DNA of 64,000 nt from a bacterium. Lineage in GTDB: Bacteria; UBA8248; JACPRG01; G963555815. Both the position numbers and the translations under genes were made by a program. The stretch is from the NCBI GenBank assembly GCA_965261595.1, contig CBDHDG010000007.1, forward strand, positions 96,001 to 160,000. Direction: 5' to 3'. This document shows, piece by piece, positions 49,638 to 60,537 of the stretch. The notes beneath the pieces are model-generated. The model did no database searches. It had not been told where the DNA came from and worked only from the letters and a program-made list of their open reading frames with translations. Every line of letters begins with the position of its first letter. The first letter of the stretch is position 1.

Positions 49638-50129
49638 ATGAACAGGATCGCCATTTATCCCGGAACGTTCGATCCCTTTACGAACGGCCATCTCGATATT
49701 GTCGCCCGCGTCCGCGACCTGTTCGATCACGTGGTGGTGGCGGTGACGAACAATCCCTCCAAGACGCCCTTGTTCACGACAAAAGAGCGGGTCGCGCTGA
49801 TTCGGGAGGCCGTGTCCGACTTCCCCTCGGTCGAAGTCGACGCCTTCGACGGTCTGCTCGTCGATTACGCGAAGAAAAAGTCGGCCAAGGTGATCCTTCG
49901 GGGGCTTCGCGCGGTGTCGGATTTTGAATACGAGCTCCAGATGGCCCTGATGAACCGCTGGCTGAACGCGGGAATCGAAACCTTCTTCATGGCGCCCAAC
50001 GCGGAATACTCTTTCCTGAGCAGCGGTCTGGTCAAAGAAGTGGCCTCTTACGGGGGAGATGTGCACAAGCTGGTCCCCGAATGTGTGCAGACCGCCCTGA
50101 GCGGAAAGATTTCCAAATCCTCCGGTTGA
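49638..50129 (+). CDS. coaD: Pantetheine-phosphate adenylyltransferase
   Basis: YPGTFDPFTNGHLD, RGLRAVSDFEYE, SS.LVKEVA. Confidence 0.98.
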   Translation: MNRIAIYPGTFDPFTNGHLDIVARVRDLFDHVVVAVTNNPSKTPLFTTKERVALIREAVSDFPSVEVDAFDGLLVDYAKKKSAKVILRGLRAVSDFEYELQMALMNRWLNAGIETFFMAPNAEYSFLSSGLVKEVASYGGDVHKLVPECVQTALSGKISKSSG

Positions 50130-50152
50130 CGCCGGTCATCGAAGGGAATCGG

Positions 50153-51388
50153 ATGAAAGCGAAACCGGCGCCGGGCCGGACCGCGGCGCGGCCTGTTCAG
50201 CTCTCCGGGCGAATCGCCGCCTTGAGACCTTCTCCCACGTTGGCGATCACCGCCCAGGCCCGGGATTTGCGCGCCCAAGGGGTGGACATCATCAGCTTCG
50301 GGGCCGGTGAGCCGGATTTCAACACGCCGGAGCCCATTGTCCGCGAAGCGAAGCTGGCCCTGGACGAGGGCTTCACGCAATACACGGCCGTGGGCGGCAT
50401 CCCGGAGCTGAAGGAGGGGATCGCCCGAAAGCTCCTGCGCGACAACGGCTGCGAATACCGGCCGGATGAAATCATCATCACCGTGGGCGCCAAACAGGCC
50501 TTCCACTCGGTTTGCCAAGTCCTGCTGGACCCGGGCTCGGAGCTCATCATCCCATCGCCCTACTGGGTCTCCTACTCGGACATCGTTTCGCTCGCCGGAG
50601 GAACCCCGGTCCTCTGCCCGCTCGGCGAAGAGAACGGGTTCGACCTGGACCCCGACGCGATCGAGCGATGCGTGACGTCCGCCACCCGGGCCGTGTTGAT
50701 TAACTCTCCGTCCAATCCGACCGGGGCCGTCTACTCCAGGGCGTCCATCGAGGCGGTTGTCCAACTGGCGCTGCGGCGCGGCCTCCTGGTCATCACCGAC
50801 GAGATTTACGAGAAGATCATCTACGATGAGGCGGTTCACGTGTGCCCGGCCGGGCTCGGCGAGGAGGCCCGCGACCGGACCATTGTGATCAACGGCTTCT
50901 CCAAAGCCTACGCCATGACGGGCTGGCGGCTGGGATACGTGGCCGGGCCGAGGCCGATCGTCACCGCCCTGGACACCTTTCAGGGCCAGGGCACGAACAA
51001 CCCCACCTCCTTCGTTCAAAAGGCCGCCGTCGTGGCCATCGACAGCGATGACTCGGTCTTCGAGCCGATGGTCCGGGAATTCAAAAAGCGGCGGGACGTG
51101 ATCGTCTCCGGGCTGAACGCCATCGAGGGCGTGCGGTGCACCCTGCCCCGAGGCGCCTTCTACGCCTTCCCCCGTGTGGACGGCCTGTTCGGAAAGACGG
51201 GCTCCGCGGGGAAGATCACAACCTCGGAAGGGCTCTGCCGACACCTGCTGGAAGAAGGCCGGATCGCCGCCGTGCCCGGCAGCGCATTCGGCGCCGAAGG
51301 ATACCTCCGACTGTCCTACGCGACCTCGTTGGAGAACATCCAAACGGGGCTTGACCGCATGGCCGAGGCCGTCGCGCGGCTGTCCTGA
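50153..51388 (+). CDS. Class I PLP aminotransferase (aspartate aminotransferase type)
   Basis: GEPDFNTP, NSPSNPTG, DEIYE, NGFSKAYAMTGWRLGY, RLSYA. Confidence 0.95.
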   Translation: MKAKPAPGRTAARPVQLSGRIAALRPSPTLAITAQARDLRAQGVDIISFGAGEPDFNTPEPIVREAKLALDEGFTQYTAVGGIPELKEGIARKLLRDNGCEYRPDEIIITVGAKQAFHSVCQVLLDPGSELIIPSPYWVSYSDIVSLAGGTPVLCPLGEENGFDLDPDAIERCVTSATRAVLINSPSNPTGAVYSRASIEAVVQLALRRGLLVITDEIYEKIIYDEAVHVCPAGLGEEARDRTIVINGFSKAYAMTGWRLGYVAGPRPIVTALDTFQGQGTNNPTSFVQKAAVVAIDSDDSVFEPMVREFKKRRDVIVSGLNAIEGVRCTLPRGAFYAFPRVDGLFGKTGSAGKITTSEGLCRHLLEEGRIAAVPGSAFGAEGYLRLSYATSLENIQTGLDRMAEAVARLS

Positions 51389-51421
51389 GACGCGCGGCCT
51401 CCCACCGGCAGGTGATCCGTT

Positions 51422-51610
51422 GTGACAACGTTCCTGTACATCATCGGGCGAATGTTGCAGCTCCTGGGGATGATCTACCTCGGGTGGGCGCTCTACCAGG
51501 GGATCAGCTTGAAACACGGCGGGATGGCTGAAGAATACAAGTGGCTCGGGATCGGCGTCGTCATCTTCCTCATCGGGCGCTTGATGGAGCGGCGATGGGG
51601 TTCCAAGTAA
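51422..51610 (+). CDS. Small two-TM hypothetical protein
   Basis: 62 aa, two hydrophobic helices, AGGTGA SD. Confidence 0.65.
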   Translation: MTTFLYIIGRMLQLLGMIYLGWALYQGISLKHGGMAEEYKWLGIGVVIFLIGRLMERRWGSK

Positions 51611-51841
51611 CGGGCCGAGGCCGACGGAACGACTCGCCGCCGCCGGCCGGAAAATCCCGCCGAACGACTTCCACGCCTCATCCATCCCGCCTTCCTGCCG
51701 CAAGCACTTGACCACCCGGGGTCCCCGGATGTACACCAAAGTCCTGATTCATCTCTCAAGGGCCAACGGCTCGGAACGGATCCTTCACCCGTCCGCCTGA
51801 GCGGCCGGCGGGATGCGGCGCAACCGGGGAAGTGAAGAGCG

Positions 51842-52633
51842 ATGAAGGGAGCCGCGTCCACCGATAAGAAATACTCCGGCGCGAAATGGTCGGTCCTGTT
51901 CTTTGCGGGCATCATCATTCTCTGGCAGCTCCTGATTCCCATGTTCGGCGTTCCCGACTACCTGATGCCCACGCCCTGGCGGGTGGTCGAGGAGTTTGGC
52001 AAGCGCGGCTCCGTCATCCTCGCCAACCTGGTGCCGACGTTCGAGGTTACAATTCTTGGATTTCTGATCGGGGCGGTGGTCGGCATCTCCTCGGGCATCG
52101 GGATTGTATACTCGCGCTTCCTGTGGCTGACCGTCTATCCCGCGCTCGTTCTCGTCAGCTCTGTTCCCCGCATCGCCATCGCCCCGTTGATCCTGATCTG
52201 GTTCGGCATCGACAGCCTCTTGTCCAAGGTGATCATCTCTTTCCTCGTCGCCTTCTTTCCGATGCTCATCAATTCCGTCGTGGGGCTGTCCCAGGTGAGT
52301 CCGGACATGATCGACCTCGGGAAAACGATGGGCATGAGCCGTATAGATGAATTCAAGAAGATCCGCCTGCCCAATTCGGTTCCGTTCCTGTTCGCCGGGT
52401 TCAAAGCTTCTATCGCCTTAGCGGTGATCGGCGCGGTGGTCGCGGAGTTTGTCTCGGGCGAGCGCGGGCTGGGCTTCCTGATCATCGTCGGCTTCGACGA
52501 CATGAATTCCAGCATTGTCTTCGCCTCCATCATCGTTCTCGCGGCGATGTCGCTGGGGATGTTCGGAATCCTGGTGTGGCTGGAGAAGGTCCTCATGCCG
52601 TGGCGTCAAGGGATTCAAATCACGGAAATGTGA
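51842..52633 (+). CDS. ABC transporter permease (NitT/TauT/SsuC type)
   Basis: P.YLMPTP..V, PRIAIAPL..IWFG, AVIGAVVAEF...GLG. Confidence 0.93.
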   Translation: MKGAASTDKKYSGAKWSVLFFAGIIILWQLLIPMFGVPDYLMPTPWRVVEEFGKRGSVILANLVPTFEVTILGFLIGAVVGISSGIGIVYSRFLWLTVYPALVLVSSVPRIAIAPLILIWFGIDSLLSKVIISFLVAFFPMLINSVVGLSQVSPDMIDLGKTMGMSRIDEFKKIRLPNSVPFLFAGFKASIALAVIGAVVAEFVSGERGLGFLIIVGFDDMNSSIVFASIIVLAAMSLGMFGILVWLEKVLMPWRQGIQITEM

Positions 52634-52670
52634 AGTGTTCCCGCCTGAAATCAACGAAAGGAGAAAGCTT

Positions 52671-53684
52671 ATGAGGGGCAAAATCGGATCGGTCTGGGTC
52701 GCGGCGCTCGCGGCCGTCGTATTTTCGTGGGGGTGGACGCCCCAGCCGGCGGCGGCGAAAGAGCTCAAGATCATCCTGGACTGGATTTACGGCGGAAAGC
52801 ACGCCCCGTTTTTCGTCGCCCGGGATAAGGGCTTCTGGAAAAAGGCCGGCGTGGACGTGAAGATCCTCCAGGGGCGGGGCTCGGGAAAAGCCGCCTTCTG
52901 GGTCGATACCAAGAAGGTCGACTACAGTTACGGGGACTTCGCCACGATGCTCAAGGTCGTCCAGAAGGGCGGGAAGAACATGGCCGTCGGCGCGGTGCAC
53001 GTTTACCAGACGGGATGCTACATCTTCTTCGCGAAAACCGGAATCAAGACGCCCAAAGACCTGGAGGGGAAACGGTACGGGGGGCCTCCGGCGGACTTCG
53101 GACGGACCCTGATGCCCGCCATGGCCGGCGCCATGGGCTTTGACATGAAGAAGGTCATCTTCAAAACCATGAAGCCGGCGGTCAGGACCCCCGCGCTGTT
53201 CGAGAGCAAGATCGACTTCATGTCGGGAACGCGCGGGTCGAGCTGTCCGCGGATGCGCATCCAAGCCGAGCGCAGGGGCAGGAAGATCTCGTTCCTCTAC
53301 TTCAAGGACATGGGCCTCGAATCCTACGGGCACGTGATCCAGGTCCACCGGGATCGGATCAAGAACAACCCCAAAGAAATCCAGGGCGTCGTGGGCGGGT
53401 TCTTCGACGCCTTTGCCTGGACGGTCAAGAACCTCGACGGGGGCTATAACGTCTACATCAAGGCCAATCCCACCAAGGATAAGGAGATCTCGAAGATTCA
53501 ATTGGCTGAGGCGATCGAAGACGTCCAGGACGCCGAAGTGATGGCAAAGGGCCTCGGTTACATGAAGGAATCGATGGTGAAGAAGTCGGTGGCGACGGCC
53601 AACAAGTACTTCAAGCTCTCGCCGCCCGTCGATTACACGAAAACCTACACCAACCGGTTCATCCGGCCGAATCCGGGATTGTAG
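52671..53684 (+). CDS. ABC substrate-binding protein (NMT1/THI5-like)
   Basis: Signal peptide, LDW...HAPFFVA.DKGF, TPKDLEGK, YTNRF. Confidence 0.9.
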   Translation: MRGKIGSVWVAALAAVVFSWGWTPQPAAAKELKIILDWIYGGKHAPFFVARDKGFWKKAGVDVKILQGRGSGKAAFWVDTKKVDYSYGDFATMLKVVQKGGKNMAVGAVHVYQTGCYIFFAKTGIKTPKDLEGKRYGGPPADFGRTLMPAMAGAMGFDMKKVIFKTMKPAVRTPALFESKIDFMSGTRGSSCPRMRIQAERRGRKISFLYFKDMGLESYGHVIQVHRDRIKNNPKEIQGVVGGFFDAFAWTVKNLDGGYNVYIKANPTKDKEISKIQLAEAIEDVQDAEVMAKGLGYMKESMVKKSVATANKYFKLSPPVDYTKTYTNRFIRPNPGL

Positions 53685-53694
53685 AGGAGCACCA

Positions 53695-54453
53695 TTGCCG
53701 AGCGTCATCGAATATCGAAACCTCCGGAAGGTCTACAACCCGGACAGCGGCGAGGTCGTTGCCCTGGAGGAGGTCAGCCTCGAAGTGGGGGACGGGGAGC
53801 TCCTCACCGTCATCGGCCGGAGCGGGTGCGGAAAGACCACGCTTCTCAAGCTGACAGCCGGCCTGCTGGCGCCGACGGCGGGGACGGTTCATGTGGCGGG
53901 GGCGCCGGTCCTCGGCCCCCTGACCAACGTGGGGATTGTCTTCCAGGCCCCGGTGCTGCTCGACTGGCGGAAGACCCTCGACAATGTCCTGCTGCAAATC
54001 GAGGCCCGCAAGCTCAACGTCGAGGAATACCGTGAAAAGGCCCTCAAGCTTCTGGATCTCGTCGGCCTCAAGGGCTTCGAGGACAAGTACCCCAGCGAGC
54101 TTTCGGGCGGGATGCAGCAGCGCGCCTCGATCACCCGGGCGCTCATCCATGACCCGCCCCTGCTCCTGATGGATGAGCCTTTCGGGGCGCTGGACGCCAT
54201 CACGCGGGACGAGATGAACCTGGAGCTGCTGCGCATCTGGCGGGAGGCCCGGAAAACCATCCTGTTCATCACCCACAGCATTCCCGAGGCTGTGTTTCTG
54301 GGGGATCGGGTGATCGTGATGACGCCGCGACCCGGCCGGATTGCGGAGATCATTCCCATCGATCTCCCCCGTCCCCGGAAAACAGCCCTGCGGGATGAGC
54401 CGAAGTTCATCAAATACGTCAAACACATCCGCGGAAGCCTGGGCGTGGCGTAG
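53695..54453 (+). CDS. ABC transporter ATP-binding protein
   Basis: GRSGCGKT, LSGGMQQR, LLMDEPFGALD. Confidence 0.95.
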   Translation: MPSVIEYRNLRKVYNPDSGEVVALEEVSLEVGDGELLTVIGRSGCGKTTLLKLTAGLLAPTAGTVHVAGAPVLGPLTNVGIVFQAPVLLDWRKTLDNVLLQIEARKLNVEEYREKALKLLDLVGLKGFEDKYPSELSGGMQQRASITRALIHDPPLLLMDEPFGALDAITRDEMNLELLRIWREARKTILFITHSIPEAVFLGDRVIVMTPRPGRIAEIIPIDLPRPRKTALRDEPKFIKYVKHIRGSLGVA

Positions 54454-54663
54454 CCTTTGCGTCCTGGCTCCCGAACCAATCGACCCAAGGGGCGGCGCGG
54501 GAGAAGAGGCGGTCCCAGCCGGTTTTCGATTCCGCATGGAATCCGCGCGGAAGCTCCGCGTCAACCAACCCATGTCGACTCGATGCGCCGGGATCTTCCA
54601 CCGGCAGGGTTCGCGTCCGAGAGCGAAACCCCCCGGATCCAAGATTCCGGTGGAAACTCCGAC

Positions 54664-55266
54664 TCAGTACTTTCTCAAGATTCCCACCACGATGCCCTGA
54701 ATCTTGAACTCGCCGTCCCGGACGATGATGGGCTCCATCGTGGGGTTGGCGGGTTGCAGGCGCACATGGCCGTTCTCGCGGTAATAACGCTTGAGGGTCG
54801 CCTCGTTTCCATCCAGGAGGGCGACGACGGTTTCTCCGTTGTTGGCGGTTTTGCGCTCTTCGATGATGACGAAGTCGCCGTCCTCGATGTGGTCGTCGAT
54901 CATCGACTGGCCCTTCACCTGGAGGACGTAAAGATTTCTGGCCCCGGCCTCCGTCCACGGGAGGGCGATGGTGGTCGGATCCAGGACGGCTTCCAGGGGG
55001 GTCCCGGCGGCGATGTAGCCCATCAGGGGCAGCTCCCGCACAGGCTCCGGCTCCCTCCCCTCCAGGACCTCGATGGAACGGCTGCGGTTCCAGCCCCGCT
55101 TCATGAGTCCCTTCTCGATGAGGTTGAGGATGTGCTTGTGCACTGTGGCGGGGGAGGCCAACCCGAAGCCCGCCCCGATCTCCTCCAGGCTCGGAGAATA
55201 ACCTTTTTCCTCGATGAACTCTTTCACAAAATCCAGTATCTGGCGTTGTCGTTTTGTCAGGTACAT
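54664..55266 (-). CDS. lexA: SOS repressor LexA
   Basis: LTKRQRQIL, YSPSLEEI, cleavage site IAAG, catalytic S (GQSM) and K (ATLK). Confidence 0.96.
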   Translation of the reverse strand: MYLTKRQRQILDFVKEFIEEKGYSPSLEEIGAGFGLASPATVHKHILNLIEKGLMKRGWNRSRSIEVLEGREPEPVRELPLMGYIAAGTPLEAVLDPTTIALPWTEAGARNLYVLQVKGQSMIDDHIEDGDFVIIEERKTANNGETVVALLDGNEATLKRYYRENGHVRLQPANPTMEPIIVRDGEFKIQGIVVGILRKY

Positions 55267-55365
55267 CGTTCAATCCTCTCTTTCGGTAAAACCCGAACCG
55301 CTTTGAAAATCCAACGACGGCCATCCATCCAGCGACTTTTTTTCAGCTTGTCCCCATCTTCGCTC

Positions 55366-55395
55366 AATATACGACGAAATGGCCACGAAAGTAAA
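55366..55395 (-). promoter_or_regulatory. Putative lexA promoter with TTTC-N7-TTTC direct repeat (candidate operator)
   Basis: TTTACT-18 nt-TATATT; ACGAAA repeated at 55374 and 55385 (11-bp period). Confidence 0.45.
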
Positions 55396-55400
55396 GCCCC

Positions 55401-55453
55401 AAAAAAAATCCCCGGCGAAGGAATCGAGAAGTCCGCGCCTTGCCGGGGATTTT
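55401..55453 (-). terminator. Rho-independent terminator
   Basis: Minus strand ATCCCCGGC...GCCGGGGAT stem followed by a T8 run. Confidence 0.75.
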
Positions 55454-55580
55454 CGGTGGTGCCGACGAGATTAGCCTGGGCGCCTGCCCGGCCAACACCA
55501 GGTCAGGTCGTCAGACCTCGGCCACCTCGCGATCACTACATGAAGATTTCTTCAAATGATCACCTCCTTTCCCGCGTTAC
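55401..55580 (-). ncRNA. Putative structured small RNA carrying a 14-codon micro-ORF (55555-55511)
   Basis: Own TTGACA promoter, AAAGGAGGTGATC SD, long hairpin and terminator. Confidence 0.5.
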
Positions 55581-55584
55581 CGGA

Positions 55585-55614
55585 AACTTAAGGGGTGCGG
55601 ACCCGTTCTGTCAA
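55585..55614 (-). promoter_or_regulatory. Sigma70-type promoter of the small transcript
   Basis: TTGACA-18 nt-TAAGTT. Confidence 0.6.
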
Positions 55615-55814
55615 GCCTAAATATGGAAACGTCCAGATGCTTGAGAAAACTATTCGCTTTGAAATCAGATAGATCGCATTAAAAACTTAGAGCCCCTCTT
55701 GACCTTTTACATGAGCCTTTGTTACCTTTCAGACGAAGATGGTTTGTTTCTTGCTGTTCGTAGTACGGAGAACGCATGTACGATCGCCGCTCGGATGATT
55801 CTCAGAGGGGAAAA

Positions 55815-57839
55815 ATGAATCCCATGCGACTCCGATCAAAGAGGGCGCTCCTGTCCTTCTTCGCGCTGTTTTTCTTTTTCATGTTGGGGCGTCCGAGCCT
55901 CGCGCATGAGCCTTTCCAAACCCCCAAGGGGCTGGAAAGCAGCGTCGATTTCTGGATCAAGGTGTTCACGCGGTACAAACGAAATCAGGCCGTCGTTCAT
56001 GACACGGAAGATCCAAGCCTGATCTACGATGTCGTCAACCTGGACGGCGCCGGAGGCCCAAGCAGCTCCCGCGTACGGTGGCGGAGGGCCAGACGCGCCC
56101 GGGAGCGTTATGCCCGCCTGTTCCGCGCTTGGTCCGTTTCCCCTCCCCGGCCGCGGGACCTGTCGCGGAAGGAACGCCGGATCATCCGGGCCCTCCGGAA
56201 GCGCCGATACAATTTATCCAAAGCGTCCCGAAACGTTCGCGCCCAGCAGGGTGTGCAGGAAAAGTTCCGCGATGGGATCATCCGATCCGGGCGCTATCTC
56301 AGCCGTATGCGGCGCGTTTTTCTCGACTATGGTCTTCCGCCGGACTTGACGTATCTTCCCCACGTCGAATCCTCTTTCAACTACGAGGCCTATTCCAAAT
56401 TCGGGGCGTCGGGGGTCTGGCAGTTCACCCGGTCGACGGGGCGGCTTTTCCTGAAGATCAACTACGATATCGATGAGCGCCGGGACCCCATGCTCGCCAC
56501 GCACGCGGCGGCCAAGCTCCTGCGCCGGAACCACAAAGAGCTTGGAACCTGGCCCCTGGCGGTCACGGCCTATAACCACGGACGCGCGGGGATGGCGCGC
56601 GCGGTCCGCCTCCACCAAACCCGACACCTCCCGACATTGATCCGGAAATACAGGAGCCGGACGTTCAAGTTCGCGTCGAAAAACTTCTACGCCGAATTTC
56701 TGGCGGCGCGAATCGTCGCCAAGAACGCGCGGCGGTACTTCGGGCCCCTGCGGGAGAGAAAACACTCGCGGGATCGGGTCTTCCGGCTCCCGGCCTACGT
56801 TTCCGTGGAGACGCTGACCAAAATTTCACCCGTCACCCTTGAGGAGATCCAACGTTATAATCCGGCGCTCAGGGGTCCGGTTCTTCGGGGAGAGCGCCGA
56901 ATCCCGAAGGGTTATCTTCTGCGTTTGCCCGCGCGGAAAACGAAGGACTTCCGCCGGCGCTACGCCTCCATGTCCGCCTCGCTCAAGCACGCCGATCAAA
57001 AACGCATTCGGTGGTATCGCGTCAGGCGGGGAGAGACCCTCGGGGCGATTGCCCGGCGTTTTCGCATGTCGGTTCGGACGCTGGCGTCCGTCAACAACAT
57101 CCGAAACACCTCCCGGGTCCGCGCGGGCATGATCATCTCGATTCCGGGCTCGCGGCGGACCGCCGCCGCCAGGCCGGCTCAACGGAAACGCCGGATAACG
57201 AACGCCCGGCTCCGGGCCGCCGCCGCACCGGCCGTGAAACGGCCCGAGGCCAAACCCGCGCGGGCCGTCAAAGCCCTTGAGCCCGCGCCCCGGGTGATCA
57301 GCCCGGCCGTCTCATCGCGGTCCGCCCGGACGAACGGGACGGAGAATGGGAATCAGACGCGGCCGGAGTGGAGGGAAAGGGATCTCTCCCCGGTCCACGT
57401 AACCGGTAAGTCCGGCAAGCAAGGCTGGACGCGCGTGGAGGCGGAGGAAACCCTGAGCCATTTCGCCAAATGGCTGGATGCCTCGAAGCGCGTCCTGCGC
57501 CGGCTGAACCGGATGGGGCGAAAGCAATCCATCCGGATGGGGCAAAAGCTGAAACTCACGTTCCGCAGGGTCAACCCGGAGGAATTCGAACAAAGCCGGC
57601 TGGAGTATCACAAGAGCCTGGAGGATGATTTCTTCGAGACCTACCGGATTGTCAGGACCTTCCACCACACCATTCGGAAGGGGGAGAGCCTTTGGGGCCT
57701 CGCCCGCGAAGTTTATGAAGTTCCATTCTGGATCATGGCCCACTATAATCCGGGGTTATTCAACTCGAGCGTGGCCGTAGGGGTCAAGGTCACGTTTCCC
57801 GTGGTGGTTCCCAAAGGGCGAAAGACATCCGGAAACTGA
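55815..57839 (+). CDS. MltD-like lytic transglycosylase with LysM domains
   Basis: LPHVESSF, GVWQF..STGR, AYNHG, YRVRRGETLGAIARRF and HTIRKGESLW LysM repeats; alternative start 55776. Confidence 0.92.
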   Translation: MNPMRLRSKRALLSFFALFFFFMLGRPSLAHEPFQTPKGLESSVDFWIKVFTRYKRNQAVVHDTEDPSLIYDVVNLDGAGGPSSSRVRWRRARRARERYARLFRAWSVSPPRPRDLSRKERRIIRALRKRRYNLSKASRNVRAQQGVQEKFRDGIIRSGRYLSRMRRVFLDYGLPPDLTYLPHVESSFNYEAYSKFGASGVWQFTRSTGRLFLKINYDIDERRDPMLATHAAAKLLRRNHKELGTWPLAVTAYNHGRAGMARAVRLHQTRHLPTLIRKYRSRTFKFASKNFYAEFLAARIVAKNARRYFGPLRERKHSRDRVFRLPAYVSVETLTKISPVTLEEIQRYNPALRGPVLRGERRIPKGYLLRLPARKTKDFRRRYASMSASLKHADQKRIRWYRVRRGETLGAIARRFRMSVRTLASVNNIRNTSRVRAGMIISIPGSRRTAAARPAQRKRRITNARLRAAAAPAVKRPEAKPARAVKALEPAPRVISPAVSSRSARTNGTENGNQTRPEWRERDLSPVHVTGKSGKQGWTRVEAEETLSHFAKWLDASKRVLRRLNRMGRKQSIRMGQKLKLTFRRVNPEEFEQSRLEYHKSLEDDFFETYRIVRTFHHTIRKGESLWGLAREVYEVPFWIMAHYNPGLFNSSVAVGVKVTFPVVVPKGRKTSGN

Positions 57840-57919
57840 GCGCAGCGCACTCCTGATTTCGGGATGACCTCGTTCCCAGGGAAAGGTTCCGGGGGCAGCG
57901 GCCCTCCGCCGGAGGAGTC

Positions 57920-59020
57920 ATGGACGTTACGATTGGAAAGGCTGAATTTCAAAAAGCGCTTTCCCGTGTGCAGGGGATCGCCGAAAGCCGGAGCAGCGCC
58001 ATGCCGATCCTCCAGCACATCCTGCTGGAGACCGAAGAGGGCGGCGTTCGAATATCGGCCACGGACCTGGACATCAGCCTGCGGGCCGGCTACGAAGCGA
58101 GCGTCAAAACCCCGGGCCGCGTCACCCTCCCCGCACGCAAGCTTTTCGACGTCGTCCGGGAGCTCCCGGATTCGGACGTCCACCTGGAAGCGGAAGAAGG
58201 GCAGTGGGTCCGGCTGACGTGCGCCCGCTCGAATTTCCGATTCCCCGGTCTCGAGACGGACGATTTTCCGAACATCCCCGCGTTCGGCGATGGGCCTTCT
58301 TTCCCCCTGCCGGCGTCGGATTTGGTGGGGATGATCCGCAAGACCCAGTTCGCGATCTCCACCGACGAGACGCGCACCGCCCTCAACGGCATCTATCTCG
58401 AGTCCAAGAGCGGAACCCTGAACCTCGTGGCCACCGACGGGCATCGGCTGGCCTGGGTTTCCCGGCCTGTCGAGACCTTGACCGAAGACATGGGCATCAT
58501 CATCCACCGAAAAGCCATCCAGGAACTTCTCAAAATCGTCTCGGATGGAGACAAGAGCGTCCAGTTCCAGCGTCAGGACAACCACGTCCTGTTTCAGATC
58601 GACTCCGTGACGCTCGTTTCCCGGCTCATCGAAGGCCAATTCCCCAACTACCAGCAGGTCGTCCCCATGGGAAACGACCAGCGGGCGACCGTCTCCCTCG
58701 AAGCGCTCGGAGGGGGACTGAGGCGGGTCTCCCTGATGGCCAACGAAAAGTCCAGGATGGTCAAGCTTCGCTTTAAAGAGGGCATTCTCTCCTTGTTCAG
58801 CGATACCTCCGAGGTGGGAGAAGCCAGCGAGGAGATCGAAATCGACTACGGAGGGCCCGAGATTCTGATCGGCTTCAATTCCCGCTACATCTTGGATTTC
58901 CTCTCCGTCGTCGAGGACGATACGCTGCGGATCGATCTCAAGGATTCATTGAGCTCCATGCTCCTGGCGCCCCGTGAAGACAAAAACTACTACTGCGTCG
59001 TCATGCCCATGAGGGTCTGA
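57920..59020 (+). CDS. dnaN: DNA polymerase III beta clamp
   Basis: ATDLDISL, STDETR..LNG, ATDGHRL, RLIEGQFPNY, GFNSRYILD, VVMPMRV. Confidence 0.97.
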   Translation: MDVTIGKAEFQKALSRVQGIAESRSSAMPILQHILLETEEGGVRISATDLDISLRAGYEASVKTPGRVTLPARKLFDVVRELPDSDVHLEAEEGQWVRLTCARSNFRFPGLETDDFPNIPAFGDGPSFPLPASDLVGMIRKTQFAISTDETRTALNGIYLESKSGTLNLVATDGHRLAWVSRPVETLTEDMGIIIHRKAIQELLKIVSDGDKSVQFQRQDNHVLFQIDSVTLVSRLIEGQFPNYQQVVPMGNDQRATVSLEALGGGLRRVSLMANEKSRMVKLRFKEGILSLFSDTSEVGEASEEIEIDYGGPEILIGFNSRYILDFLSVVEDDTLRIDLKDSLSSMLLAPREDKNYYCVVMPMRV

Positions 59021-59229
59021 GAGCGCCATCCGGCGGCCGGAGATCCTATTCCGGCGACGGGGGCCGCCCCGGGGGCCGGGACTTCCGTCCGGCCGTCCGA
59101 AAGCCGCGTCTCGGGGGTCCCCCCGTCAGGCGCTGCTCGCGGATCCCCCTCTTGGGCGTCCCCGAAGGGAAGCGCGCCTCCTGAATCCCGACGGCTGAAT
59201 CTTTCCCGAATTACACAAGCGAGACAAGC

Positions 59230-60537
59230 TTGAGCGAACCACGCCCCGCTTCGCCGAAGTCGGGATTTTTCTATGGTTGGTTCGTTGTGGGGATCTCCTT
59301 CCTCACACTGGCCGTGGGGGGGTCCTCCAACGGGTCCTTCTCCGTCTTCTACGTGGCCATCCTGGAAGAGTTCAACTGGAGCCGGGCCGATACGGCCGGG
59401 GCTTTTTCCCTCAGCATGCTGATCTTCGGCGCTTGCAGCCCGCTGGTCGGATGGCTGTTGGACCGATTCGGCGCGCGCAGGGTGATGCCGTTCGGCGTCA
59501 TCGTTCTCTCGGCGGGGCTGTTGGTTTCGAGTCTCGTTTCCTCCCTGTGGCAGCTCTACATTTTCTACGGCGTCCTGGTGGCCGTGGGCGTCACGCACAT
59601 CGGCTTCATCCCCAATGTCATCATCATCTGCAACTGGTTTTTCCGCCACCGGGCCCTCGCGCTCGGAATCGCCAACGCCGGCCGCGGCGTCGGGGCGCTG
59701 ATCCTCATCCCCCTGATCCAGTACGGCATTCAGACGGTGGGGTGGCGAAACACCTACATCCTCTTGGGAACCTTCGTCTTCATCCTTCTCTTTCCTTTCC
59801 TCGCCATCTTTTTGCGCGGACGCCCCGAGGACAAGGGCCTGAGACGGCTGGGCGATCCGGAGGACGCCTCCCGGGAAGGCGAGCCGGCCCGGGAGGCGCC
59901 GCGCGGCCCCTCCTTGCGGGATGCGATGCGTTCTTACCGATTCTGGGCGTTGGCCGTCGTCGGGATCATCAACGGGCTGGCGTTCTCCGGCCTACTGGTG
60001 CATGTGGTCGCCTACATCGGCGACGTAGGCTACCCGACGCTGTTCGCCGCCACCATCTTCGGCCTGTCCGCGGTCTTCCGCTCCGGGGGCGGGATTATCG
60101 GCGGACACACCTCGGACCGGATCGGCCGCGAGTCGGCCTTCGCCCTCTTCAGTCTCCTGACCTTTTCCGGCACGGTGGCCCTGATTTTCGCCCGGCCAGA
60201 AGCGCCCTGGATCATTTACGCCTTCGCGATCCTTCACGGCCTGGGATCGGGGGCCACGGGGACGATCAACTCTTCGCTCAAAGCGGATATATTTCAGGGC
60301 CGAAGTTTCGGTCTGATCTTCGGCTTCAATCAGGCGGCCACCGGGATCGGGGCCGCCCTGGGACCGTGGCTGATGGGCCTCGTTTACGACCGGATGGGGA
60401 CCTACGTCCCCGCGCTCCAGGCCATGCTCCTGATCTACGTCCTGACGGTCGTGGGAATCTGGATCGTGGCCCCGCGGAAAGTCCGCCCCATCGGCCGCAG
60501 GGCCAAAGAGACCTTTATCGAAACCCGGACGCCCTGA
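59230..60537 (+). CDS. MFS transporter (MCT/OFA-like)
   Basis: FFYGWFVV, GWLLDRFGARRV, SDRIGRE, about 12 TM. Confidence 0.92.
   Translation: MSEPRPASPKSGFFYGWFVVGISFLTLAVGGSSNGSFSVFYVAILEEFNWSRADTAGAFSLSMLIFGACSPLVGWLLDRFGARRVMPFGVIVLSAGLLVSSLVSSLWQLYIFYGVLVAVGVTHIGFIPNVIIICNWFFRHRALALGIANAGRGVGALILIPLIQYGIQTVGWRNTYILLGTFVFILLFPFLAIFLRGRPEDKGLRRLGDPEDASREGEPAREAPRGPSLRDAMRSYRFWALAVVGIINGLAFSGLLVHVVAYIGDVGYPTLFAATIFGLSAVFRSGGGIIGGHTSDRIGRESAFALFSLLTFSGTVALIFARPEAPWIIYAFAILHGLGSGATGTINSSLKADIFQGRSFGLIFGFNQAATGIGAALGPWLMGLVYDRMGTYVPALQAMLLIYVLTVVGIWIVAPRKVRPIGRRAKETFIETRTP

Follow-up and report, generated by a model that had tools for sequence, protein, structure and literature searches.

On the minus strand of a 64,000-nucleotide (nt) stretch of bacterial DNA (assembly GCA_965261595.1, contig CBDHDG010000007.1, positions 96,001 to 160,000; this whole stretch is called the window), a compact unit between positions 55614 and 55401 stands in front of lexA. 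Read from the sequence, it consists of a promoter, an extended Shine-Dalgarno (SD) sequence, a micro-open reading frame (micro-ORF) that starts with TTG, a long hairpin that holds the stop codon, and a terminator. The locus raises the question of what such a unit is: a leader that controls lexA, a gene for a very small protein, a regulatory RNA that is not translated, or something else. The original prediction, made from the letters of the DNA, had described a small self-contained transcript that belonged to no recognized RNA family, and had left these readings side by side. The unit is a gene in its own right, with a small translated RNA as its product, and not a leader of lexA. That this gene is of the same kind as Ms_IGR-5 (Rfam family RF02471), a small RNA (sRNA) of actinobacteria, is regarded as very probable; going by sequence comparison, the window element is a remote relative of that kind, and a sub-threshold one because RF02471 gives the window no score. 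The copies, compared with one another, show that a short frame of fixed length and the fixed place of its stop codon are under selection, and that the peptide sequence is not.

When 41 related genomes were searched at the DNA level, four of the six other genomes of the window's family proved to have full-length homologs (81-95% identity), and all five copies, the window's own included, lie directly upstream of lexA. A covariance model, R1, was built from these five copies with the terminator excluded (127 positions, 32 pairs). Across the class, which as sampled is the whole phylum, 42 of the 51 genomes carry a full-length match to R1, and none of them more than one. The positive genomes number 4/6 in f1 (the window genome, G000, not counted), 37/42 in f2, 23/23 in g7 and 5/5 in g11; R1 had no match in the two g2 genomes, each of 2.1 Mb, or in the single genomes that represent f3 and f4. 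Public records with the same element in the window's phylum are labelled Nitrospinaceae or Nitrospinota. The units of f2 again have a TTGAC-type promoter and a terminator of their own. At the corresponding promoter position the f2 genera have TTGAC(T/A)..GATGAT or GATAAT, and a GC-rich stem with a T-tract lies 3' of the unit in every phylum copy displayed. The gene downstream of the unit is YtoQ in g7 (assigned by Pfam), and other genes take that place in g11 and g5 (judged by eye). Since the downstream gene differs between groups, the tie to lexA is specific to one lineage. The functional tie that had been suggested was therefore given up: lexA adjacency occurs only in the window's family (5/5), while YtoQ follows in g7 and an L31 gene in an acidobacterial variant of the unit.

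Within the window's family, the -35 hexamer TTGACA is invariant in 5/5 copies and the -10 hexamer reads TAAGTT, TAATGT or TAAGCT at equal spacing. Conservation among these copies starts at AACGCGGG, on which the placing of the transcript start is based. A consensus scanner missed the promoter of the unit, of which the -10 hexamer matches only three of the six consensus letters, and flagged that of lexA instead; it also missed the terminator, the loop of which is longer than the rule allows. RNA data bear on the same boundaries. Fourteen RNA runs contain part of 54600-55800, and the contigs of four runs, from four studies, were compared with the window. Contig X1 corresponds to 55411-55562 and contig X5 to 55413-55574 (two metatranscriptome studies), each with 0 differences from the window and each holding the unit only. 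The word depth of X5 is 11.9, against 4 for the lexA contig of the same run, and the lexA contigs in X1, X2, X3 and X5 are pieces apart from those of the unit, which end at 55411 and 55413, near the terminator. These contigs are a weak hint at a discrete transcript that fits the predicted start (~55578) and terminator, weak because contigs reveal neither strand nor true ends. The stretches without RNA cover (55278-55410 and 55575-55800) were not used as evidence, and the DNA runs contain all sampled words of 54600-55800. The self-contained small transcript first proposed is borne out, with both of its signals conserved and RNA contigs over 55411-55574.

Relatives in other phyla were collected by a motif scan of one genome per species (AGGAGGTG-N16-26-TGTA-N3-12-GAGGTGRCYG), which matched at least 118 stretches; ten matches failed a filter for purines before AGGAGG, and three more fell within coding sequence. 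The taxa given here are the labels of the public records. Among the matches listed, an equal order of parts is present in Binatia, Bryobacterales, Terriglobia, Solibacter and Acidimicrobiia, and further carriers are Actinomadura, Spirillospora, Saccharothrix, Natronosporangium, Pirellulaceae and Sumerlaeota, as well as metagenome-assembled genomes (MAGs) labelled Deltaproteobacteria or Syntrophobacter, Spirochaetales, and Gammaproteobacteria. Rfam was run on 20 loci, for which the gathering threshold of RF02471 is 45 bits. Five actinomycete copies score 81.6-106.5 bits with RF02471, followed by those from Acidimicrobiia (28.6-43.9 bits), a Spirochaetales MAG (40.1 bits), Binatia (25.5 and 37.1 bits), locus L157 (26.6 bits) and locus L036, which belongs to g7 in the window's own phylum (21 bits, E 0.33). 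Six other loci of the 20 had no match to RF02471 at E <= 1. In the reverse direction, four of the five whole genomes searched with R1 each gave a single match, which lay at the homologous locus (E 6.2e-6, 2.8e-5, 1.1e-3 and 0.0135), and two of these loci score 92-94 bits with RF02471; the fifth genome, G053, gave no match. In an even draw of 101 Actinomycetes, 73 genomes have a single RF02471 match, which exceeds the threshold in 72 of them. Six of the 101 are unpublished genomes, all positive, without which the count is 67 of 95, and none of the 51 genomes of the phylum of G000 is among the Actinomycetes sampled. The element is single copy in 42/42 positive genomes of the phylum (R1) and in 73/73 positive Actinomycetes (RF02471).

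Along with this mutual detection through intermediates, Ms_IGR-5 and the window element share their design. Both begin with an A at the 5' end and a short 5' strand, continue with AAGGAGGUG(G/A)UCC, an ORF of 12-14 codons, GAGGUGRCYG and a stop placed 15 nt beyond GAGGUG, and end with a hairpin, RAAUCC..CAG.YCACC and a terminator. Both are single copy per genome and both stand alone. They differ in that the host of the window element is not an actinobacterium, that the ORF of the window has 14 codons with a TTG start and a UGA stop, and that the apex and the bulge (AAUCUCG) of its long hairpin, P2, deviate. The statement that the unit matches no known RNA family holds in so far as RF02471 leaves the window unscored, and an Rfam search of 50000-60000 returned no family at the site of the unit with E <= 1; it fails in so far as intermediates link the unit to RF02471. 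ARAGORN reported neither tRNA nor tmRNA at the unit, and a divergent signal recognition particle RNA or 6S RNA was ruled out, as both are found above threshold elsewhere in the genome.

IGR-5 is described as a validated, uncharacterised sRNA of Mycobacterium smegmatis, located between MSMEG_5794 and MSMEG_5795, that is NAD-capped and has A at +1 (bioRxiv 10.1101/2021.12.14.472595). Other publications rename it ncMSMEG15794c (PMC10454040) and record expression of Ms_IGR-5 in Streptomyces lividans (PMC8079986), and for M. abscessus and M. smegmatis the MS_IGR-5 homologs are reported to have ribosome-protected reads (PMC4974804). Among open-access papers and preprints, no publication on the ORF, structure or function of Ms_IGR-5 was found, and a broader look at dual-function sRNAs brought up general reviews only (PMC12612679 and PMC12310071).

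The reading frame was followed in 150 copies (108 among the scan matches listed and 42 from the phylum), some of which are near-identical or come from one genome reached twice. In 147 of them, a start codon (ATG 116, GTG 15, TTG 12, CTG 4) lies 6-15 nt after GGAGG and in frame with a stop, which makes a frame of 11-15 codons. The stop codon is TAG in 110 of the 147 copies, TGA in 24 and TAA in 13; counted from the first G of GAGGTG, it lies at +15 nt in 138 copies, at +14 in eight and at +16 in one. In 112 distinct SD-to-stop regions, ATG stands in frame 84 times and outside it 12 times, with the remaining two frames closed in ~90%. Insertions and deletions (indels) in the ORF between families are multiples of three (14 versus 12 codons). 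The actinomycete sample drawn with RF02471, which is free of the bias of the scan motif, has a 12-codon ORF with its stop at +15 in 25/25 analysed loci (27 published loci were examined, of which L197 and L199 were left out of the ORF analysis). The eight copies with the stop at +14 (L068, L079, L091 and L098, all four labelled Pirellulaceae, and L140, L150, L160 and L172) retain the ORF and read GAGGTGGC in another frame, giving ..RGGR(T/G). The TTG-start ORF of 14 codons that had been described in the window, along with the stem over its stop and the terminator, is present as described, and the frame is evolutionarily maintained.

The sequence of the peptide drifts. The 147 copies encode 92 distinct peptides, which are hydrophilic and variable, have 11-15 residues and lack a hydrophobic helix, and the near-constant residues (E-V-A/T and R/W-T-R) are coded by nucleotides of the helices P1, P1b and P2. 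Differences at codon positions 1, 2 and 3 number 43, 73 and 83, with no third-position excess and no codon periodicity. A conserved cysteine, considered as a sensor or active residue, was ruled out: the TGTA in the scan motif had biased the result, and Cys is found in only 10/25 unbiased actinomycete peptides.

Upstream of the frame, AAAGGAGGTGATC at 55570-55558 and the G that precedes it (55571) make a perfect Watson-Crick complement of the 3' tail of the organism's own 16S rRNA, GAUCACCUCCUUUC. The complementarity amounts to 14 nt, one more than the 13 counted at first, because the genome's own 16S rRNA ends ...GGAUCACCUCCUUUCU. This stretch is 100% identical in the five family copies, and all relatives keep AGGAGGTG(A/G)TC(C). 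The 12-mer AAGGAGGTGATC is present six times in the genome (the site of the unit, the rDNA and four further sites), so that an SD of such length, though unusual here, is not unique. As had been supposed, an extended SD complementary to the cell's own 16S tail suggests by its design that ribosomes engage the RNA.

The structure was examined on an alignment, A6, of 95 copies from all groups fitted to R1; a multi-phylum MAFFT alignment, A5, was misaligned at its 3' end and was not used. In A6, 90.2% of cells pair, and both sides change in 28 of the 32 pairs. The covariation score is 0.346, compared with 0.116 for shuffled alignments (0/500 reach 0.346) and at most 0.039 with the partner slid, and the column pairs of highest mutual information are exactly those of P1 and P2. 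P1 joins RNA nucleotides 3-6 with the codons just 5' of GAGGUG, and its three inner pairs occur in several types (GC 60/CG 19/AU 13; CG 45/UA 22/AU 14/GC 6; GC 34/AU 25/CG 23). Independently of any alignment, a P1 helix of at least 4 base pairs (bp) forms in 37 of 43 distinct own strand pairs versus 35% of cross-combinations. P2 has compensatory changes in all helices but the invariant GGUG/CACC stem; the printed RF02471 consensus of Rfam leaves GGUGR/YCACC unpaired, whereas the pair counts obtained here support pairing. For P1b, a helix of at least 5 bp forms in 26 of 53 own strand pairs versus 32% of cross pairs. One compensatory change is found in the window's family (GAUCA/UGAUC to GAUCG/CGAUC), and other phyla pair GGUCC with GGACY; comparative support for P1b is moderate. 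The bulge of P2 in relatives is RAAUCC(C) or ACUCC, followed by CAG-N-YCACC, and the regular expression A[AC]T..-CAG-N-YYACC matches 98 of the 150 copies. In g7 and Binatia, though not in the window's family, the RAAUCC bulge could form a pseudoknot with GAUUC of the apical loop. The 191-nt RNA of the window folds at -86.4 kcal/mol (z = -3.75), and 0/200 shuffles fold equally well. Homologs, covariation and peptide conservation had been named at the outset as ways to check the unit: homologs exist, P1 and P2 covary, and the peptide sequence is unconserved. Another pairing that was considered, of the YCACC 3' strand as an anti-SD mimic with the SD at the 5' end, was dropped, as the R/Y positions do not change in step with each other in g7 (by eye). 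The coordinates of all parts in the window are collected in Table 1.

Table 1. Parts of the unit and the next gene downstream, in window coordinates.
Feature	Position	Strand	Description
Promoter	55585-55614	-	-35 TTGACA 55614-55609, 18-nt spacer, -10 TAAGTT 55590-55585
Transcript (inferred)	55401-55578	-	~170-178 nt; starts at A (55578 or 55577), ends in T-tract
Extended Shine-Dalgarno	55558-55571	-	GAAAGGAGGTGATC; core in single-stranded bulge between P1 and P1b
Micro-ORF	55511-55555	-	TTG at 55555, 14 codons, TGA 55513-55511; peptide MKKSSCSDREVAEV
P1, 5' strand CGCG	55573-55576	-	Partner 55531-55528; family alifold
P1, 3' strand CGCG	55528-55531	-	In ORF codons 9-10; ends on first G of GAGGTG
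P1b hairpin	55532-55560	-	AUCAUU 55560-55555 (SD tail and start codon) with AGUGAU 55537-55532; constrained fold
P1b apical stem	55554-55550 / 55545-55541	-	Constrained fold
P2 long hairpin	55458-55526	-	5' strand GGUG-CCGA-GGUCUG.. spans last 4 codons and stop; 3' strand end UCGG-CA-CCACC; apex variable
P2 asymmetric bulge, 3' strand	55466-55472	-	AAUCUCG; unpaired in fold
Intrinsic terminator	55399-55456	-	Stem AUCCCCGGC / GCCGGGGAU (55450-55442 / 55416-55408), then U8 55408-55401
lexA	55266-54664	-	Next gene downstream; Pfam LexA_DNA_bind and Peptidase_S24

How such a gene could act is suggested by the arrangement of frame and helices. Translation itself, and not the peptide, may be its working principle, an idea that is put at, or just short of, an even chance. 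A 30S subunit would dock on the exposed 14-nt super-SD, and the ribosome that reads the short frame would melt P1b, P1 and the lower half of P2. Termination would then occur with the internal SD-like GAGGUG 6-9 nt behind the P and A sites of the ribosome, where the anti-SD could hold the ribosome in place. With a ribosome on the RNA, the 3' strand of P2 (the RAAUCC bulge and the anti-SD-like YCACC) would be single-stranded; without translation it would be locked in the helix. The RNA would act as a ribosome-gated switch or as a sensor of translational status, with the peptide as a by-product, and candidate outputs of the switch are a target RNA, a protein partner or the stability of the RNA itself. 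We lean slightly toward the combined proposal, that is, an independent gene of the Ms_IGR-5 kind that works as a ribosome-gated switch driven by translation. A bolder version, offered tentatively and rather doubtful as it stands, is that of an ancient multi-phylum family of such switches, one per genome, in which the parked ribosome exposes an effector strand and so reports or regulates the translational state. The sensed state could then be, e.g., free 30S subunits, intact 16S tails or termination capacity, and Ms_IGR-5 could be the actinobacterial form.

Several observations weigh against the combined proposal. RF02471 gives no score at the unit of the window, and in a whole-genome search of G000 its best match reaches 12.2 bits and lies elsewhere. 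None of the family members has a known target, partner or phenotype, and the mutual-information scan returned no covarying partner for the RAAUCC bulge. The loci were picked by a motif that contains AGGAGGTG, TGTA and GAGGTGRCYG, and A6 was fitted to R1, both of which lean toward structure; the copy counts are not independent because the copies are related. The RNA contigs establish presence only, and translation in the window's organism is without direct evidence. Lastly, differences in the ORF are synonymous in 81 cases versus 118 non-synonymous. The neutral expectation for the synonymous share is ~1 in 4, and as the observed share lies somewhat above it, the peptide may be under some selection.

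That last count also favors a micro-protein gene, in which a peptide of 12-14 residues (M..C..EV...) is the product and the RNA structure merely tunes its expression. Further points on the same side are that start, frame, length and stop are kept in nearly all copies, that ATG is mostly in frame, that the peptide of copy L022 is identical to that of the window despite three synonymous changes, and that ribosome-protected reads are reported for mycobacteria (PMC4974804). The variety of peptides argues the other way, for the few near-constant residues coincide with P1, P1b and P2 nucleotides, the third-position excess is absent, and Cys is present in well under half of the unbiased actinomycete copies. 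Moreover, the copies with the +14 stop read the conserved motif in a different frame (R-G-G-R). A micro-protein is on these grounds considered unlikely.

The freedom of the peptide would suit a regulatory RNA that is not translated at all, either a base-pairing sRNA or a decoy for the 16S anti-SD tail of the 30S subunit, with an ORF that is incidental. Complementarity of 14 nt to the 16S tail is far beyond the needs of initiation and is the best conserved block of the unit, and the bulge of P2 is pyrimidine-rich and anti-SD-like. An incidental ORF, however, would not be expected to keep its start 6-15 nt from GGAGG and in frame with a fixed stop in 147/150 copies with the other frames mostly closed, nor to have indels in multiples of three between families, and the ORF is also retained in copies that read the RNA motif in another frame. 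A wholly untranslated RNA is therefore judged quite improbable, and the translation-driven switch is preferred over it.

A leader-peptide attenuator in cis, in which translation of the micro-ORF controls read-through of the terminator into lexA, has the classical order of leader ORF, hairpin, terminator and gene on its side, as well as the position of the unit directly 5' of lexA throughout the family. The GCCGGG of the P2 apex may pair with CCCGGC of the 5' arm of the terminator (6 nt, by eye), and the acidobacterial variant lies upstream of the L31 gene. But lexA has a conserved promoter-like element of its own (TTGACT..TATATT) between the terminator and the gene, and the downstream gene changes with genus and phylum (LexA, YtoQ in g7, others in g11 and g5, L31, and various ones in Actinomycetes). 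The RNA contigs of the unit and lexA are separate (a weak point, as the contigs are without true ends), and the peptide contains no conserved regulatory codon or arrest motif, its constant residues being helix nucleotides. Attenuation of lexA is very improbable. A unit of the type I toxin kind and a leader that recodes UGA (selenocysteine-type), both offered in the original prediction, have in their favor a UGA stop that lies in a hairpin beside a stress-response gene. Both are hardly credible, since the stops are mixed among TAG, TGA and TAA, indels of 1-2 nt occur 3' of the stop within the family, read-through would cross the terminator, and the short peptides are hydrophilic and variable with no hydrophobic helix and no antisense partner seen in the sequence.

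Neighboring genes and variants of the unit deserve separate mention. In the acidobacterial variant (L074, L076, L080, L082, L085, L108, L115, L137 and L146; Bryobacterales, Terriglobia and similar), the unit lies ~200-250 nt upstream of the L31 gene, as assigned by Pfam at three loci and by eye at the remainder. Its downstream fold deviates, with CACUGA pairing with UCAGUG and CCUGUGGACC opposite GGUCCAG, and R1 gives it only 12-15 bits; this variant may have turned into a cis leader. Sensing of release factor 1 upstream of rpmE-prfA in Acidobacteria was considered and rejected, the stops there being mixed (TGA, TAG and TAA). In Actinomycetes, the neighbors of RF02471 were surveyed by scanning 55 of 85 candidate ORFs, and 16 of 27 published loci (L186-L213) yielded THAP4_heme-bd (nitrobindin-like) in 5/16, pyridoxamine-phosphate oxidase in four, FUR in two and NlpC/P60 in two. 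These neighbors are varied and recur in part only.

In the interval between the terminator and lexA (window 55366-55395, minus strand), a promoter-like sequence of lexA, TTTACT/TTGACT-18-TATATT, overlaps the motif TTGACTTTCGT-N5-TTTCG, which is kept in 5/5 family copies. The motif is a direct repeat of TTTCG with 11-nt spacing and could be a candidate LexA operator of the window's lineage; Alphaproteobacteria are known to have an SOS box of the direct-repeat type. Upstream of the unit is a divergent SLT/LysM transglycosylase gene. A 387-codon ORF on the plus strand (window 54457-55620) runs antisense over lexA and the entire unit, and resembles a spurious long frame of GC-rich DNA. A weak aceE-II match on the minus strand (window 53884-54032; 18.7 bits versus a gathering score of 100, E 0.22) falls within an ABC-transporter-like ORF and is taken as chance.

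Short DNA matches of 29-39 nt in 14 f2 genomes were set aside; thirteen of these, of 29 nt, fall in a coding-looking stretch. In g7 (L007-L019, ~1501-1529 of each locus) they are 90% identical to window 55537-55509 and lie within the coding-looking region ..GVSEREVAEVWRQEV.., and are probably a chance resemblance to the ...REVAEV end of the ORF. By eye, this g7 stretch (..SEREVAEVW..) has the likeness of an aminopeptidase. In one g7 genome, a group II intron domain (RF02005, 168.6 bits; L036 2196-2420) and a tRNA (1756-1845) lie near the unit.

For annotation, these results mean that the unit should be called an independent small-RNA/micro-ORF gene and not a lexA leader, and that the RF02471 model of Rfam and its consensus structure could be widened. 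Ms_IGR-5 has so far been treated as an actinobacterial sRNA, and at least eight further groups, named by record titles or the search tool, carry a single copy of its design in each genome (Nitrospinota, Binatia, Acidobacteriota, Acidimicrobiia, Pirellulaceae, Sumerlaeota, Deltaproteobacteria MAGs and Spirochaetales MAGs). What is conserved across them is the 14-nt SD, a mini-frame of fixed length and a fixed stop place in a covarying helix, and not the peptide, so that an orphan sRNA becomes a testable case of translation as a structural switch. As the family is present in genetically tractable hosts (M. smegmatis, Streptomyces), the question is open to experiment. If the bolder version were true, an ancient family of ribosome-gated switches would constitute a type of housekeeping riboregulator that has so far gone undescribed.

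Three known systems offer a comparison. Dual-function sRNAs such as SR1/SR1P of Bacillus subtilis, RNAIII/hld of Staphylococcus aureus and SgrS/SgrT of Escherichia coli are likewise small, terminator-ended transcripts that are both structured and translated. Their peptides, of 26 to ~45 residues, are conserved and functional, whereas the amino-acid sequence of the unit's 11-15 codons drifts freely. The frameshift site of prfB (release factor 2) has an SD-like motif in common with the unit, the GAGGUG of which lies 6-9 nt upstream of the P and A sites and could pair with the anti-SD; unlike prfB, the unit has no slippery site or downstream frame, and its stop is unspecific. Leader-peptide attenuators and upstream ORFs (trpL, pheL, ermCL and tnaC) are cis-tied to one regulated operon and have diagnostic codons or arrest motifs, whereas the unit changes neighbors, has its own terminator and contains no conserved regulatory codon. 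With these leaders, however, the unit would share its central feature, in that translation of a short ORF remodels the downstream RNA and the position of the ribosome sets the fold.

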